The notes below the pieces were generated by a model, which was not told where the DNA came from, made no database searches, and worked only from the letters and a program-made list of their open reading frames with translations. From UHGV virus genome UHGV-0097092: DNA of 44,628 nucleotides; one strand, written 5' to 3'. This stretch comes from a virus. Shown here piece after piece: positions 3,010 through 25,612 of this stretch (position 1 is its first letter; each line of letters opens with the position of its first letter). The translations under genes were made by a program, and so were the position numbers.

Positions 3010-3414
3010 TTAATAAGAGAAATAGACCGTTGCAACACTGTTATATTGGTCGAACGAAATAGCATTTACTTCATAGCTGGTGGGCAGCTTCTTACCAAGA
3101 ATGTAGCCAGGCCATGAGTTCCACGGAATTTCTGTTCGGTCGTCGTCTTGCCACATTACGCAACCAAGAGAGCCAACCATTTCACCATATCGCTTGCCAC
3201 AAGTAACAAAGCCGATATTCGGCTTTTCTTGTGTTACTGATACCGTGGTGGTATTGGCAGATGCATTGATTGCAGTACGTTGCTCATGCTCGCTGGCGGA
3301 TGAGGCGCTAATTACAGCGGTTGCCGCAGCTCCCGCAGCAATAACCGATGCATGAGATAAATGACAGGCAGATAACATTGCCAGAAAAATAATATTTCTT
3401 TGAAATTTAGCCAT
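3010..3414 (-). CDS. exported protein of unknown function
   Basis: 134 aa with signal peptide and Ala-rich region. Confidence 0.5.
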   Translation of the reverse strand: MAKFQRNIIFLAMLSACHLSHASVIAAGAAATAVISASSASEHEQRTAINASANTTTVSVTQEKPNIGFVTCGKRYGEMVGSLGCVMWQDDDRTEIPWNSWPGYILGKKLPTSYEVNAISFDQYNSVATVYFSY

Positions 3415-7757: not shown

Positions 7758-8441
7758 TTACGGTTGCCCTCCCTTCACCTGCATTAGCGTCAGGTTTCCG
7801 CAAAATACAGCACCAGTATCGATATAATGCTGGTTCCAGAATGCTTTTGGGCTTTTAGCCGGGGTGTGTCCGAAGATAAATCGATCTGCACCTGTAATTT
7901 CTTCACCGATGCCATCTATCGAATCACTAACACGGTCGCGCGACCAGATGACATTGAAAAGCGGCACAGCCTTACCGAACTGATACTCTCTATCCGGATA
8001 GTCAGCATGAGCAATGACAATAGTCTCCTGCCCGGTGTTCAGCTCAATGATATGAGGCAATTGCCTTACCAGCTCCACCAGCGCCCTGGCTAAAACTTCC
8101 TTATCACTATCCAGCATAAAGAACCACTGGCCGCCATTCATTAGCCAGTTATTCACGTTTCCAGCTGGGCTTAACGCATCGATCATCAACCTCTCATGGT
8201 TACCCATGACAGCCCGGAACCAGGGCATTTGCAATAACTCCAGGCATTCGACATTTTCAGTGCCGCGATCGATAAGGTCGCCGACTGATATCAGTAAATC
8301 CTGCGCCGGGTCAAAATCCACACGATGGAGTTCATTCATAAGCAGGGTGTAGCAACCGTGCAAATCACCAACAACCCATATGTTTCTGTATCCTGAACCA
8401 TCAATACGGCTATATAACGCCTGGTCGTTAACGGTGATCAT
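7758..8441 (-). CDS. Ser/Thr protein phosphatase, lambda PPase / PrpA-PrpB type
   Basis: metallophosphatase motifs GDLHGC, GDLIDRG, GNHE. Confidence 0.8.
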
Positions 8442-10936: not shown

Positions 10937-11091
10937 CAAAATTTCCCCAGCATCGTGACGCAAAACATAAGCACTGCAAAAAGCTCAATACCAAGCTCAA
11001 GTAGCGCCAACGCGCCGAAAAACAGCACATAAAACAGGCCGATCTCATTCACAGGTGGCTGGTGGATCGCACTTAAGGCTATAAGCATCAT
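10936..11091 (-). CDS. small hydrophobic membrane protein (51 aa), first gene of the leftward array; my own ORF call
   Basis: GGAGG upstream; MMLIALSAIHQPPVNEIGLFYVLFFGALALLELGIELFAVLMFCVTMLGKF; stop overlaps next start as TGATG. Confidence 0.35.
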   Translation of the reverse strand: MMLIALSAIHQPPVNEIGLFYVLFFGALALLELGIELFAVLMFCVTMLGKF

Positions 11092-20244: not shown

Positions 20245-21150
20245 ATGAGATCAGTCGCTTTCAAAAACATCTTCATCTATCGTCTTTCACGTGAAGTTAA
20301 CTGGAGTGCCGCAGAAGTATCCGATGCTCTTAGCAAATTCGTGTTTACTCCTTGCGGTTCTCAGGACACAGCTAAAGTCGGTTGGACACCTGTTCTTGGT
20401 GACAACCTCACCCATGAATACCAGGGTTTTCTGCTAATACAGCATAAGCGAGAAGAAAAAATTCTCCCCTCGCAGGTGCTCAAGGAAGAGTTGCAGAAAA
20501 AAGTCCTGAAACTCGAAGAAGAGCAAGCCCGCAAGCTGAAGAAAACGGAAAGAGACAGTCTTAAAGATGAAGTCCTGCATTCACTTTTGCCTCGCGCGTT
20601 CACGAGAAAATCACTCGCCAAAATCCTGATCGACCGCAGCAACCATCTGGTATTCGTTGAGGCAAGCAGCGCCAAAAAGGCAGAGGACCAGCTGGCTTTA
20701 TTGCGAAAGTCGCTCGGCAGCCTGCCTGTCATTCCATTCACACCACGCGAACCGCTGGAAATTACAATGACCGAGTGGTTTAAAAGCGGCTTCCCTGCCG
20801 GATTTACAGCAGGTGAAGACGCCACATTAAAGGGTCTGCTCGATAATGGTGGTGCCGTTCGCTGCAACAAAGTTGATCTACAGTCCGACGAGATTATGTC
20901 TCACATTGAGGCGGGGAAAGTAGCTACGACCGTTGCAATTAACTGGATGGACCGTGCGTCGTTCAGAGTCAACGATGATATGAGTATCAAAGCCCTGACA
21001 TTCTGTGATGATCTCTATGACCAGAACGACGATATCGACCGGGAGGATGTAGCACAACGATTTGATGCTGATTTCGTGCTCTTTACGGGTGAATTATCTG
21101 CACTGTTTAACGCGCTGGTGGAGGCCATTGGCGGTGAAGCAGAACGATAA
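20245..21150 (+). CDS. rdgC: recombination-associated protein RdgC
   Basis: full-length similarity to recalled E. coli RdgC ([68 protein letters not shown]). Confidence 0.85.
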
Positions 21151-21193
21151 TAACCGACCGCTTGTTGTGAGTCTTTGTGATTTTACGGGGGCA

Positions 21194-21814
21194 ATGGTTG
21201 CCCCCTGGCTGGAATACGGTGTCGATGCCGCTATCGTCGATCCACAGCACTTATCGACCAGTGACGAGCGGATGCAATCAGGTGCCGTTCTGACGCGTAT
21301 TAGTGCGATCATCGATAGCGATGAAGTATACGCTTTTCTCCGTAAGAATTTGCAGCGCATCGTGTTTCTGGCCGGGTTCCCACCGTGTACTGACCTGGCT
21401 GTTTCCGGCGCGCGCTGGTTTTCGGACAAGGCTAATAAAGATCCGGTTTTCCAGTTCAAAGCAATGCAGGTTGTCTGGCAGTGTTATGACATTGCAAAGA
21501 TGATCGGTTGTCCGTACATGATTGAAAATCCGGTCAGCAAAATATCGACATTCTGGCGTAAGCCAGATCACATCTTTCACCCTTACTTCTTCACTGCATA
21601 TTGTCAGGAAGATAACTACACCAAAAAAACATGCCTCTGGAGCGGCCAGGGCTTTGTCATGCCTGATGCCCTAATGGACGAATCATTAGGCAAGCCAGAT
21701 AACAGAATCCATGCCGCGCCACCAGGGCCTGACAGGGCTAATTTCCGAAGTGCTACTCCACATGGATTCGCAAAGGCAGTTTTCGAAGCGAATAAGGGGG
21801 TGCTCTATGAGTAA
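21194..21814 (+). CDS. short C5-cytosine methyltransferase-like protein lacking an obvious target-recognition domain
   Basis: about 206 aa with motif I-like LCDFTGAM, motif IV-like GFPPCTDLAVSGA, motif VI-like MIENPV; start uncertain (ATG 21194 or upstream GTG/TTG). Confidence 0.45.
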   Translation: MVAPWLEYGVDAAIVDPQHLSTSDERMQSGAVLTRISAIIDSDEVYAFLRKNLQRIVFLAGFPPCTDLAVSGARWFSDKANKDPVFQFKAMQVVWQCYDIAKMIGCPYMIENPVSKISTFWRKPDHIFHPYFFTAYCQEDNYTKKTCLWSGQGFVMPDALMDESLGKPDNRIHAAPPGPDRANFRSATPHGFAKAVFEANKGVLYE

Positions 21815-22712
21815 ATCTATAGCAAGCATAGCCATAGAAAAACAGGATACGATGGCTGAAATTAGCTATATGCGCACCATTCGGACTCCGGATGAATATG
21901 AGCGTCCGATATTCAAATGGGTAGGTGGTAAATTCTCAGAATTGCCTACAGTGCTTGAGCATCTACCACACGGTAAGCGGTTAATAGAACCATTCGTTGG
22001 TGGCGGTTCCGTATTTACGAATGCAGGATTTCGCCACAACCTGCTTAATGATATTAACGGTGACCTGATTAACTTCTATCAGACATTGCAGCGAGAAGGA
22101 CATTCGCTCGTCACGCTGTCATATAGTTTTTTCAAAAATTACAACAACGCTGACGCTTACCTCGAAGTGCGTGAGGCATTTAACAGAGGAAAATATGACC
22201 AGCTACATCATGCTGCCGCATTTTTGTACCTTAATCGTCACTGTTTTAATGGCGTAACGCGGTACAACCAAAATGGCGAGTTCAACGTGGGGTATGGCAA
22301 ATACAAAGCGCCCTACTTCCCACATGCAGAGATGGAGGCATTTTTGGCTGATGACGTACTCAAAAACACTTCCTTTGTATCAGGAGACTTTGCTAGCGTC
22401 ATCGAGGCGGCTGGTGAAGACGATGTGATTTTTTGTGATCCGCCGTATGAACCGCTTCCGGATACAGAGGGATTTACCAGCTATTCAGGAAATAGCTTCC
22501 GTTTCGATGAACAAAAACGGCTTGTATCACTGTTGGTGGATGCCCACCAGCGCGGCGCTAAGGTAGTGATAACAAATAGTGGTGCTCCAAACATCCGTGA
22601 GCTATATGAAGGAAACGGGTTTAAAGTACATCATATGGCAGCCAGACGGTCGGTTTCCTGCAAGGCGTCAACACGTGTAGTTGCTAACGATATAATTGCA
22701 ATAATGAAGTAA
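21807..22712 (+). CDS. dam: Dam-family DNA N6-adenine methyltransferase
   Basis: FKWVGGK, EPFVGGGSVF, FLYLNRHCFNG and DPPY motifs; 8-bp overlap with upstream gene. Confidence 0.8.
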   Translation: MSKSIASIAIEKQDTMAEISYMRTIRTPDEYERPIFKWVGGKFSELPTVLEHLPHGKRLIEPFVGGGSVFTNAGFRHNLLNDINGDLINFYQTLQREGHSLVTLSYSFFKNYNNADAYLEVREAFNRGKYDQLHHAAAFLYLNRHCFNGVTRYNQNGEFNVGYGKYKAPYFPHAEMEAFLADDVLKNTSFVSGDFASVIEAAGEDDVIFCDPPYEPLPDTEGFTSYSGNSFRFDEQKRLVSLLVDAHQRGAKVVITNSGAPNIRELYEGNGFKVHHMAARRSVSCKASTRVVANDIIAIMK

Positions 22713-22745
22713 AAAACGCCGCAGTAGCGGCGTTTACTTTTTCAT
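22711..22745. terminator. bidirectional rho-independent terminator between dam (+) and glnS (-)
   Basis: stem acgccgc/gcggcgt, loop agta, A-run on one side and T-run on the other. Confidence 0.55.
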
Positions 22746-22760
22746 GTGGCGAAATACCTA

Positions 22761-24422
22761 TTAACCTAACTTCGCCCAGGTATCACGCAGCCCAACGGTG
22801 CGGTTAAATACCGGTTTTTCCGCCGTAGAATGGCGGCTGTCGAGGCAGAAATAACCTTCACGCTCAAACTGGAATGCTTTACCCGCTACCGCTTCTTTCA
22901 GCGACGGTTCAGCAAAGCCTTGTTTGATCACCAGCGATTCCGGGTTAATCACCGACAGGAAATCATCCGCAGCACCAGGGTTCGGCACGCTGAACAGACG
23001 GTCGTACAGACGGATTTCAACCGGCAGCGCATGTGCCGCGCTCACCCAGTGAATAACACCTTTGACTTTACGACCATCTGCCGGATCTTTGCTTAAGGTG
23101 TCGGCGTCATAAGTACAGAAGATGGTGGTGATATTGCCTTCGGCATCTTTCTCCACGCGTTCAGCCTTAATGACGTAAGCATTACGCAGACGCACTTCTT
23201 TACCCAGCACCAGACGTTTGTACTGCTTGTTAGCTTCTTCTCGGAAATCGGCGCGGTCGATCCAAATCTCACCGCTAAACGGCACCTGACGGCTACCCAT
23301 TTCCGGTTTGTTTGGATGGTTCGGCATGGTGACCATTTCGCCTTCGCCCTGGTAGTTTTCGATAACCAGTTTCACCGGATCGATAACCGCCATTGCGCGC
23401 GGCGCATTTTCGTTGAGATCTTCACGGATGCAGGATTCCAGCGACGCCATCTCAATGGTGTTGTCCTGCTTGGTCACGCCGATGCGTTTGCAGAACTCAC
23501 GAATAGAAGCCGCAGTGTAACCACGACGACGCAGACCGGAAATGGTCGGCATACGCGGGTCATCCCAGCCTTCAACGTGCTTGTCGGTCACCAGCAGGTT
23601 CAGCTTACGCTTGGACATCACAGTGTATTCCAGATTCAGGCGCGAGAATTCGTACTGGCGCGGGTGAACAGGAATGGTGATGTTGTCCAGCACCCAGTCG
23701 TACAGGCGACGGTTGTCCTGGAACTCAAGCGTACACAGAGAGTGCGTAATACCTTCCAGCGCATCGCTGATGCAGTGGGTGAAGTCGTACATCGGGTAGA
23801 TGCACCACTTGTTGCCAGTCTGGTGGTGTTCAGCAAATTTAATACGGTACAGCACCGGATCGCGCATCACGATAAACGGTGAAGCCATGTCGATTTTCGC
23901 ACGCAGGCAGGCTTTACCTTCTTCAAAACCACCGGCACGCATTTTTTCGAACAGCGCCAGGTTCTCTTCAACGCTGCGGTCGCGGTACGGGCTGTTTTTA
24001 CCCGGTTGCGTCAGGGTGCCGCGGTATTCGCGGATCTGTTCCGGCGTCAGTTCATCAACGTACGCCAGGCCTTTATTGATCAGTTCGATCGCATAGGCGT
24101 GGAGCTGATCAAAATAATCGGAGGAGTAACGGACGTTACCAGACCAGTGAAAACCTAACCACTCTACGTCGTTTTTGATCGACTCAACATACTCGATATC
24201 TTCTTTTACCGGGTTAGTGTCGTCGAAACGCAGGTTGCACTGGCCTTTATAGTCCTGGGCGATCCCGAAGTTCAGGCAGATAGATTTCGCATGGCCAATA
24301 TGCAGATAGCCATTTGGTTCCGGCGGGAAACGGGTATGTACTGTGGTGTGCTTACCACTGGCCAGATCTTCATCGATGATCTGACGAATGAAGTTAGTCG
24401 GGCGGGCTTCTGCCTCACTCAT
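22761..24422 (-). CDS. glnS: glutaminyl-tRNA synthetase, near-identical to E. coli GlnRS as recalled
   Basis: 553 aa; N-terminus [52 protein letters not shown] and VMSKR class I motifs. Confidence 0.95.
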
Positions 24423-24690
24423 TGTGGATTCCTCAAAGCGTAAACAACGTATAACAGCGTATGATCTTATAAGCCGAATAGGCTGACAACCACTAGTTGA
24501 TTAGAAATTGCTTTCTATCGTTATTTCAATAATGAGCTTTTTCATGAAGCCCACTTTTGCGCATAAGTAAATTAATGACAAATGGTGCACAATTGGCACC
24601 AAAAAGGATGTAAAAGTGCACCAAATTAGTGGTATATTGGTGCACCTTTGGTTCAAAACTTTTTAAGTTCTAAAACCAACCTGAAAGACT

Positions 24691-24978
24691 TTATTTTGCT
24701 TCCTCAGACTCCGCTAACATGAGGATAGCATGGCGGATCATATTCAATTTGCTGCGATTATGCTTTTTGCTTAACGCATCAAGTACCTGGTACTCGTATT
24801 CATTGAAGCCAACACGAATGGATTTAAAATCACGTGGGGCGTCCTTATCGAGCACTTTGTTGTCTTCTGGTTGCTCACCCGGCACCAAATCAGCTTTGCT
24901 GGCAAAAGCCTCAATTCGGCGTTCAAGATCGAGGTCTTTTACTTCGGGGGCTTTTACCGATTTACGAGGCTTAATCAC
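24691..24978 (-). CDS. ParG-like ribbon-helix-helix centromere-binding protein
   Basis: 95 aa; C-terminal RHH-like KSIRVGFNEYEYQVLDALSKKHNRSKLNMIRHAILML; downstream of and overlapping the ParA-like gene. Confidence 0.5.
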   Translation of the reverse strand: MIKPRKSVKAPEVKDLDLERRIEAFASKADLVPGEQPEDNKVLDKDAPRDFKSIRVGFNEYEYQVLDALSKKHNRSKLNMIRHAILMLAESEEAK

Positions 24979-25612
24979 TTAATAACTCCTTAACCAACAT
25001 CTGGATTTCACCTTTAGCTTTCCCGTTGTCCATCTCAACAACGCCCTTCCCTTCAGCCATACAATCGCGGTAAACCTTGCGATCGCGAATGATGGTTTTC
25101 AGCAACTTCAGTTGCGGATATTCAGCCAGGTACTCTTTGGCCTCATTGGCTTCATTCACAACCGGATTGGATGGGGCCATTGTTAAGACTGCGCACGCCT
25201 TAATGCTAGGATTAGGCATCAGATCCAAAGCCTCTTCAAAGACTTCAACAAAATGCGCCAGAGTGTCTAAATCTGGCTGAGATGGCCTGAATGGAACAAG
25301 CAAAACATCCGCCGCAGTAATACCGGTGCGCATTTCTTTGCTATCACGACCAGCGGTATCAACAACCACAAATTCATAACGCTTGTCCAGATCAAGAAGT
25401 GTTTCACGAATATTCCCAAACTTCTGGACGCAATGAATTACTGGAGAAACCTCTGCCGCATTACGGTCCGATGCCCAACGGGCAGATGTTCCTTGCTTAT
25501 CTGCATCAAGTAGAACTACGTCCTTATTTGCGCGGGCAAGCTCCGCACAAATATTTACGCTGGTGGTTGATTTGCCACAGCCACCTTTTTGGCTGGCTAC
25601 CAATATAATCAT
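24971..25612 (-). CDS. parA: small ParA/ParF-type Walker ATPase (type Ib partition)
   Basis: start MIILVASQKGGCGKSTT (deviant Walker A); about 213 aa; GAGG upstream. Confidence 0.8.
   Translation of the reverse strand: MIILVASQKGGCGKSTTSVNICAELARANKDVVLLDADKQGTSARWASDRNAAEVSPVIHCVQKFGNIRETLLDLDKRYEFVVVDTAGRDSKEMRTGITAADVLLVPFRPSQPDLDTLAHFVEVFEEALDLMPNPSIKACAVLTMAPSNPVVNEANEAKEYLAEYPQLKLLKTIIRDRKVYRDCMAEGKGVVEMDNGKAKGEIQMLVKELLSD

Follow-up and report, generated by a model that had tools for sequence, protein, structure and literature searches.

The glnS gene of D6-like phage-plasmids: an apparently single and old capture from an Escherichia chromosome, with recurrent exchange with host alleles

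Why should a phage-plasmid (P-P) carry a complete copy of an essential gene of its host's translation apparatus? The question is raised by the viral genome UHGV-0097092, whose stretch of 44,628 nucleotides analysed here, referred to in full as the window, contains an intact coding sequence (CDS) of glnS, encoding a glutamine--tRNA ligase (GlnRS) of 553 amino acids on the minus strand (22761..24422). The window is part of a D6-like (P1-related) P-P: positions 13324-36982 are collinear with Escherichia phage D6 at 96.6-96.7% identity over the 23.6 kb of D6 that were compared, the gene order agrees, and the glnS locus itself is 96.8% identical to that of D6 at the nucleotide level. The answer that I propose, with a probability of roughly 0.7 for the account as a whole, is that glnS was captured once by this lineage together with its own Dam-sensitive promoter, that it supplies an extra dose of ordinary GlnRS, and that it has recombined repeatedly with the chromosomal gene.

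The presence of the gene as such is a known hallmark of D6-type P-Ps and has already been published. The GenBank record of D6 annotates a 'glutaminyl-tRNA synthetase, similar to E. coli GlnS' between a dmt-like methyltransferase and orf61/parA, and glnS was reported in D6-like genomes, where it was termed a moron or cargo gene, in a paper that credits an earlier observation to Gilcrease & Casjens 2018 and proposes a role in host fitness or in plasmid maintenance, by analogy with cysS of pBT1 (PMC6799933). A 2025 preprint surveying D6-like phage-plasmids leaves glnS unmentioned. The initial annotation of this DNA, made from its letters, had regarded an essential synthetase on a mobile element as unusual, which in view of these records does not hold as a new discovery. 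What is new with respect to the published record are the mosaic structure of the copies, the indications of a donor outside E. coli, the roughly 20% of relatives without glnS, and a draft contig in which a full 92-kb P-P stands between reciprocal hybrid copies.

The gene lies in an interval (22713-24690) that is bounded exactly by the stop codons of the phage dam gene (22712) and of a ParG-like open reading frame (ORF) of 95 amino acids (24691). It is uninterrupted in the ORF list, and Pfam recognises all three GlnRS domains in its translation, namely PF00749 (1.5e-129 over residues 28-337) and PF03950 and PF20974, the two C-terminal beta-barrel anticodon-binding domains. The class I signatures are legible as HIGH (LHIGHAKS) and as a VMSKR/KMSKS-type motif (TVMSKRK), and the protein matches PHROG 12136, the D6-type GlnRS family, over the full length. 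When aligned with the solved E. coli GlnRS (1o0b), 553 of 553 residues are paired, and the two proteins differ only by D510E, V552L and the missing final E554. With an identity of about 99.5% to a characterised enzyme, the product presumably charges tRNA-Gln with glutamine. The recognition of a full-length E. coli-type glnS in a phage-plasmid backbone is therefore upheld by both the domain matches and the structural alignment.

A blastn comparison with the K-12 region around nagE-glnS-chiP (from nagA to fldA, L001; comparison sequences are given by such numbers throughout) delimits the captured Escherichia block. There is a single match, at 22765..24510 on the minus strand (1,746 bp, 97.25% identity, 47 mismatches, 1 gap), which begins 87 nt ahead of the ATG and breaks off 7 nt short of the end of the native stop codon. 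The chromosomal neighbours nagE, chiZ and chiP and the native glnS terminator are all absent, in agreement with the earlier placement of the gene outside its nagE-chiP context. The GC content is 51-53% across glnS against 44-47% in the flanks. At the 3' end of the gene the last two codons and the stop have been remade, so that WAKVGE* has become WAKLG*. At the 5' end a promoter scan finds the native sigma-70 promoter (24461..24489, minus strand) with the same elements as in K-12, a -35 element TTGTCA (24484-24489), a 17-nt spacer and a -10 element GATCAT (24461-24466) that contains a Dam site GATC (24463-24466); the Shine-Dalgarno sequence GAGGAA, read from the sequence 6 nt 5' of the ATG (24429..24434, minus strand), is kept in all P-P copies. 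The idea that the gene has retained its own upstream region is hence correct for these 87 nt, whereas the remaining 180 nt up to the ParG-like gene are specific to the P-P.

Downstream, terminator scanning and RNA folding identify a bidirectional intrinsic terminator at 22714..22735 that is common to dam on the plus strand and glnS on the minus strand, just as the initial annotation had it. Its 9-bp stem has 6 GC pairs with T-runs on either side, lies 26 nt past the glnS stop, and folds on both strands, with -20.6 kcal/mol (z -4.0) and -19.4 kcal/mol (z -3.1), respectively. An equivalent hairpin is found 3' of dam in the glnS-less relatives L003 and L004. As glnS would have landed beside dam without a terminator of its own, the dam terminator would now serve both genes. 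In comparison with the chromosomal glnS of E. coli (b0680), to which it has 97.3% nucleotide identity, the P-P gene thus has the same GATC-containing promoter, Shine-Dalgarno sequence, frame, domains and catalytic motifs, but it differs in its neighbours, its terminator and its C-terminus, in its position beside a phage dam gene, and in being carried by an extrachromosomal phage genome of about 92 kb.

Was this block acquired once or several times? Both of its junctions lie at the same nucleotides in 15 further full-length P-P copies, and the exact dam-side (left) junction is present in 19 IMG/VR contigs. Besides the window, 14 copies were translated, and all 13 intact ones among them end in WAKLG*, an ending that no chromosomal GlnRS has among 78 sampled gammaproteobacterial genomes. 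The shared junctions and the shared C-terminus point to one capture event that was inherited by the lineage. An ancestor of the D6 lineage would have taken up, by illegitimate recombination, a 1.75-kb piece of an Escherichia chromosome in which glnS is accompanied by its promoter and ribosome-binding site but lacks its last two codons and its terminator; the site of insertion would have been the intergenic gap in which the dam and par operons converge. Empty-site relatives that share the replicon or par type (L003, L004, L138-L140) show the arrangement without the insert, in which dam is followed by the terminator, about 135 bp and the ParG-like gene. In L003 the par module is 96.6% identical to that of the window and dam only 70%, which suggests that modules have been shuffled around the insertion site.

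In PLSDB the full 2.6-kb locus is carried by 98 plasmids, nearly all of them non-mobilizable, whose hosts include E. coli, Salmonella, Shigella and other genera; it is also found in 70 complete E. coli genomes. Over the complete E. coli genomes as a whole, glnS itself occupies 76-81 plasmid places. A par module of the D6 type is present in 101 of these 5,426 genomes and is plasmid-borne every time. Five glnS-positive plasmids with PLSDB typing that were examined belong to rep_cluster_1704, as do the glnS-less L003 and L004. D6 orf62 (YP_009914739) and the glnS of pYU39_89 from Salmonella Typhimurium ST213 are the same gene as in the window, in the same orientation and with both junctions, and the gene order rdgC/hrdC, methyltransferase, dmt, glnS, orf61, parA, stbB, parM is common to the window and D6-like elements. 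Among 50,697 phage records a close GlnRS is found only in D6; the other matches are short unannotated fragments, apart from two uncultured phages of about 640 kb (LR745206 and LR756502) with GlnRS homologues of 50-53% identity. A 'glutamine--tRNA ligase/YqeY fusion' is carried by a 69-kb plasmid of Parabacteroides distasonis (NZ_OY725761.1).

The close similarity to E. coli, with chromosomes 97.0-98.3% identical to the window over the whole block, gives the impression of a recent capture, which the initial annotation had considered. The one junction pair in all copies and the divergence of the unconverted haplotype speak against it. Over CDS nt 100-500 the D6-type haplotype is at least 95% identical to only 75 records, evidently the plasmid copies (76 plasmid glnS places in the same search), and it is 93.5-94.5% identical, that is 5.5-6.5% divergent, to all 5,425 E. 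coli chromosomes, none of which carries a P-P-type tract of at least 95% identity in this region. Over nt 110-400 it differs by about 6% from E. coli, by 6.5% from E. ruysiae, the only representative of the rest of the genus among the matches listed (E. albertii, E. fergusonii and E. marmotae being left out), and by 17-20% from Salmonella and Citrobacter, while E. coli and E. ruysiae differ from each other by 4.8%. A metagenome scan with a 42-nt pattern of the P-P haplotype returned four P-P contigs and no chromosomal donor. As the unconverted haplotype is far from all sampled E. coli and from E. ruysiae, the donor was another Escherichia lineage outside the sampled E. coli, and the capture is old. 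The near-identity to E. coli is largely secondary, brought about by recombination with host alleles, and the apparent signal of a recent capture reflects homogenisation against these alleles.

Evidence for such exchange comes from a table of 167 variable sites in 14 P-P copies, 7 E. coli chromosomal alleles and E. ruysiae. The P-P copies differ from each other by up to 3.2%, and that of the window differs by 3.2% from D6 but by 1.2% from some chromosomes. Sites with fixed differences between P-P and chromosome are restricted to CDS nt 87, 105 and 1653, all adjoining the ends of the block, as is expected if homologous recombination, which needs flanking homology, exchanges interior tracts. In the window such a tract covers CDS nt 129-585 (23838..24294 on the minus strand, with outer limits 23760-24318); in sliding windows it shows no difference from the chromosomal alleles of K-12 and D217-5 and about 5% from the other P-P copies (median 14-17 differences), with a maximum chi-square of 33.6. 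In D6, the same region (nt 129-585) has the divergent P-P haplotype, whereas its 3' half is of the K-12/O157 type, with a tract at nt 1020-1572 that matches a K-12 / O157-like chromosomal allele. Two other tracts lie in L005 (nt 234-732, matching an S1-ESP-like allele) and in 13ZX36 (nt 717-1446, matching a D217-5-like allele), and each of the four independent tracts has a maximum chi-square permutation p <= 0.002. Further short tracts are visible in marker strings, for example at nt 315-324 in FDAARGOS_1289 and at nt 285-324 in L014.

Among 25 copies, 24 distinct alleles are found, and an allele identical to that of the window is not seen in complete E. coli genomes, where the best match is 98.9%. 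Copies borne by Salmonella P-Ps contain E. coli-type tracts and no Salmonella-type ones, the Salmonella chromosome being about 15% divergent; the mosaics are therefore generally not consensus artefacts, and the exchange takes place in E. coli hosts. I conclude from these alignments that the interior of the P-P gene is overwritten patchwise by host alleles while sites near the junctions stay element-specific. Being almost identical over 1.7 kb to an essential gene of the host, the block recombines repeatedly with chromosomal glnS. In this respect the locus is a clean natural case of a mobile element and a chromosome that continually exchange sequence at an essential gene.

What, then, could the gene do for its carrier, a temperate element that is able to infect laboratory E. 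coli? Compared with K-12, the P-P copies have 36-63 nucleotide differences and only 3-8 amino acid changes, all of them conservative, namely V97I, Q106K, I112V, S478N, D510E, V552L and the loss of E554. The ORF is intact in 14 of 15 full copies, and the promoter, its GATC and the Shine-Dalgarno sequence are invariant in 16 P-P copies. The P-P-specific V97I, Q106K and I112V are erased in the window copy by its K-12-like tract, and N-terminal changes have likewise disappeared in L005 and L129. Since host tracts erase P-P substitutions without loss of the gene, the copy would supply an ordinary and not an altered GlnRS, and no new specificity is to be expected from it.

On the chromosome, Dam methylation of the GATC is reported to repress the glnS promoter (Plumbridge & Soll 1987), and RNA-seq confirms this, with a rise of glnS by 1.08 log2FC in a dam deletion (PMC12369378). 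On the P-P the same promoter lies 1.7 kb from the phage dam gene, on a replicon that undergoes massive replication in lytic growth. The captured gene would probably be transcribed from this sigma-70 promoter and add to the pool of ordinary GlnRS, so that the enzyme would be raised modestly in lysogens and more strongly during lytic replication, when P-P DNA would be under-methylated. The initial annotation had suggested that the gene could buffer host translation during infection. Among the conceivable roles I consider extra GlnRS the most likely, followed by that of a neutral passenger, and maintenance by takeover of the host function or integration by homology less likely.

The genome of P1, on its part, carries several analogues of host genes, such as ban (dnaB), ssb, humD (umuD), hot (holE) and dmt (dam), which can back up or supplement host functions. 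The glnS of the D6 lineage resembles them in being an analogue of a host housekeeping gene on a P1-type plasmid prophage. However, the analogues in P1 are ancient and far removed in sequence from the host genes, whereas glnS stands at the level of a host allele and is kept there by recombination.

Several observations weigh against the proposal of an extra enzyme dose. In the copy on CP088384.1 (pF16EC0589-1, L105), a 1-bp insertion close to the 3' end of the gene shifts the frame and truncates the protein at 539 amino acids; the gene is unannotated in that record, and it may be a real pseudogene or the product of a homopolymer sequencing error. About 20% of the plasmids with a D6-type par module are without glnS (par is present in 101 genomes, glnS in 76-81 plasmid places; examples are the empty-site relatives listed above), so that the gene is dispensable for the element and the statement that it occurs 'in all D6-like genomes' is not strictly true. 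ARAGORN detects no tRNA genes in the window (1-44628), and no translation module is therefore visible there; as four tRNA genes (Asn, Thr, Ser, Met) are reported for D6-like elements (PMC6799933), the corresponding region must sit outside the window. Intactness is weaker evidence of function than it seems, as gene conversion by the chromosomal allele could be enough to preserve the ORF even if the plasmid copy were under no selection, an objection that is partly answered by the conserved parts close to the junctions. The window's own tract may be due to cross-talk with the host's chromosomal copy during assembly or polishing. Finally, the benefit of an added dose is one that I infer purely from sequence comparisons.

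Of the competing explanations, the one that survives best is that glnS is a neutral or near-neutral passenger, captured once by accident and of no benefit, whose ORF is kept intact by conversion from the essential chromosomal copy. The frequency of host-allele tracts, the relatives that do without the gene, and a product of the same kind as the host enzyme all agree with this view, and the authors of PMC6799933 also consider that the element is possibly selfish. However, the parts that are hard for conversion to reach, namely the promoter, the Shine-Dalgarno sequence, the initial 100 nt and the remade C-terminal end including the stop, are invariant in the 16 copies. Moreover, a useless 1.7 kb in a headful-packaged genome of 92 kb is expected to decay or to be lost more than the single frameshift in 15 copies indicates. 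I therefore regard a mere passenger as unlikely, though less so than the explanations that follow.

Alternatively, glnS could serve plasmid maintenance by taking over an essential function, in the manner of cysS on pBT1 of Salmonella Typhimurium D23580; the P-P would down-regulate or replace the chromosomal glnS, and plasmid-free cells would grow poorly. This was raised explicitly for D6-like glnS in PMC6799933, and the adjacency of glnS to two partition modules would suit it. Both cases concern a second class I synthetase on a low-copy enterobacterial plasmid in a cell with the chromosomal gene. In pBT1, however, cysS has 79% nucleotide and 89% amino acid identity to the host gene, is by experiment the required copy, and the chromosomal gene is under repression in plasmid-bearing cells (PMC6333337), whereas the P-P glnS has about 97-98% identity and recombines. 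Of the 5,426 complete E. coli genomes, 5,425 contain a near-full-length glnS match, and 5,428 of the matching places are chromosomal; as these genomes include about 80 that carry a glnS-positive P-P, loss of the chromosomal copy is excluded. A repressor that would act on the chromosomal gene is not evident, two toxin-antitoxin systems are already present on the element (PMC6799933 and the D6 annotation), and the same replicon is maintained in relatives that have no glnS. Altogether a takeover appears improbable.

A further possibility is that glnS is a portable region of homology, whose selected role would be the reversible, Campbell-type integration of a P-P that has no integrase. The relevant evidence comes from hybrid contigs, several of which were retrieved by exact-protein look-ups. 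In L120, L125 and L126 chromosomal nagB-nagE is joined through glnS to the dam-rdgC side of the P-P, and in L119, L132/L143, L136, L142 and L145 the P-P par genes are joined through glnS to chromosomal chiP-fur. L125 and L145 are parts of one contig, JAOVJD010000005.1 (GCA_025796155.1, 211,402 bp), which has no Ns in the parts examined and reads fur-chiP-glnS(554 aa)-parG-parA ... rdgC-glnS(553 aa)-nagE-nagB. The 554-aa copy (21,926-23,590) and the 553-aa copy (114,088-115,749) are spaced by 92,159 bp, which is the size of a D6-like genome. They differ at 55 sites and are reciprocal hybrids: when one crossover in an identical run at nt 585-771 is undone, the chromosomal parent has 0 differences from K-12 and the P-P parent 3 nt from L017.

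Campbell integration by homologous recombination would be expected to yield such a structure, but so could mis-pairing by the assembler, since a single wrong pairing in an identical run of 185-199 nt would give the same picture and the contig is a draft of the short-read type. A second contig, JAJQYQ010000004.1 (L136, GCA_025156195.1, 209 kb), has a matching length, with one hybrid junction seen. Both contigs continue for about 21.9 kb of chromosome past the 554-aa glnS and then end, which fits a break at the same chromosomal repeat.

The comparison that comes to mind is with F and F-prime plasmids, where a RecA-dependent single crossover at a shared sequence yields an integrated copy between direct hybrid repeats (Hfr), and excision elsewhere exchanges tracts. 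JAOVJD010000005.1 and the glnS mosaics fit this pattern, and other assemblies provide one-sided hybrid contigs (L119, L120, L126, L132/L143, L136). Integration and excision at differing points in glnS would swap tracts and yield mosaics. In contrast to F, the homology is with an essential single-copy gene and not with an IS, and candidates for an integrated form are seen in draft contigs only: the D6-type par module is on the chromosome in none of the 101 complete E. coli genomes that carry it. The glnS repeat is moreover a site of demonstrable misassembly.

One example is L131 (SQAB01000059.1), which I rejected as a P-P fragment replacing chromosomal glnS, as it has N10 gaps at 3368-3377, 7926-7935, 8318-8327 and 10986-10995; in this scaffold P-P pieces are stitched between nagE and chiP. 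L142 (JALMOB010000019.1, 6775-7893) was likewise discarded as evidence of a hybrid because of single Ns where the two glnS copies differ. Short-read contigs of D6-like elements also often end inside glnS (L006, L007, L011-L013, L018, L021, L117, L118). Short-read assemblies that break or misjoin at glnS can mislead both glnS typing and the assignment of contigs as 'chromosomal' or 'plasmid'.

I would tentatively keep, as possible though rather doubtful, the idea that D6-like P-Ps, being without a chromosomal integrase, use the captured glnS as a RecA-dependent attachment site and integrate occasionally and reversibly. If true, the element would be both a plasmid and an integrative prophage that shuffles alleles at an essential translation gene, and a real integrated form would provide a route into the chromosome for an integrase-less P-P. 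That integration is the role for which glnS was selected seems less probable still, as recombination is an unavoidable result of homology and need not be a selected function. D6-like par genes are also found with plasmid-type junctions in JAMTPZ010000003.1 (L146, 370,846 bp, with glnS) and JBAOOP010000002.1 (L139, 205,091 bp, without glnS); par regions in contigs so far above 92 kb suggest cointegrates, integration elsewhere, or misassembly.

Duplicate aminoacyl-tRNA synthetases on plasmids are usually of the resistance class, with parallels in the mupirocin-resistant IleRS and in the self-immunity synthetases of producers, and one could imagine an auxiliary GlnRS variant that is resistant to inhibitors, toxins or host defences directed at GlnRS or tRNA-Gln. 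The recurrence of V97I, Q106K, I112V, S478N and D510E in P-P copies could be read in this sense. However, the identity of the P-P enzyme to the sensitive one of the host exceeds 98.5%, with 3-8 conservative differences and no clear divergence, and host tracts erase the substitutions in several copies, that of the window included, while the gene is retained. To my knowledge no natural inhibitor that targets GlnRS has been described, and I consider a protective enzyme very improbable. An assembly chimera, in which reads of the host's glnS were misjoined into the P-P contig as the initial annotation had allowed for, is hardly credible, for although glnS is a true repeat between element and chromosome that is misjoined in some drafts, the same junction nucleotides recur in D6, about 98 PLSDB plasmids, 70-81 E. 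coli plasmids of complete genomes, 19 IMG/VR contigs, Salmonella plasmids and many NCBI drafts, and the junction within the last codons gives a C-terminus not seen in any sampled chromosome.

The genes around glnS are in part as first described. On the right flank, and upstream of glnS on the same strand, lie the ParG-like ORF of 95 amino acids (24691-24978, minus strand) and a ParA-type ATPase (24971-25612, minus strand). The ParA label is supported by Pfam (ParA, CbiA, AAA_31) and by PHROG 164 ('ParA-like'), whereas the ParG-like label has behind it a weak Arc-like ribbon-helix-helix match of 2.4e-4. The partition genes StbB and ParM are also matched by Pfam and PHROG, so that glnS adjoins two partition modules.

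Between the captured block and the ParG-like stop is an element-specific spacer of 180 bp (24511..24690) with three palindrome-like motifs of the GGTGCACC type at 24584, 24616 and 24639 and a terminator-like hairpin at 24583-24601. Among the loci compared, the spacer has no match outside glnS-positive P-Ps, and it is missing from L003, L004 and all the chromosomal ones; it may be an operator, a centromere-like site or a terminator of the par operon. Relatives without glnS have other repeated motifs at this position. The region upstream of the chromosomal glnS promoter also differs among E. coli lineages, and in the ST131 chromosome NZ_CP103557.1 (L113, 1-149) a DeoR/GlpR-family regulator lies directly 5' of glnS instead of nagE.

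On the left flank, the phage Dam (21711..22712, plus strand), a D12-class N6-adenine methyltransferase convergent with glnS, is matched by PF02086 at 7.4e-57 and is annotated in D6 as 'similar to P1 dmt'. The description of this flank as a row of phage methylase genes applies to dam and to the putative C5-methyltransferase at 21062-21814, which has no Pfam match and is matched by PHROG 757 ('DNA methyltransferase'), but not to rdgC, which is matched by PF04381 and is a recombination-associated gene. The methyltransferase module adjoining glnS varies among relatives. In the window it consists of two overlapping ORFs (21062-22712, PHROG 757 and the D12 Dam), in some relatives (L104, 1025-3313; L140, 6058-8346) of a single protein of 762 amino acids that combines PF00145 (C5 methyltransferase) with PF02086 (Dam), as in P1 Dmt, and in FDAARGOS_1289 it is annotated as a pseudogene.

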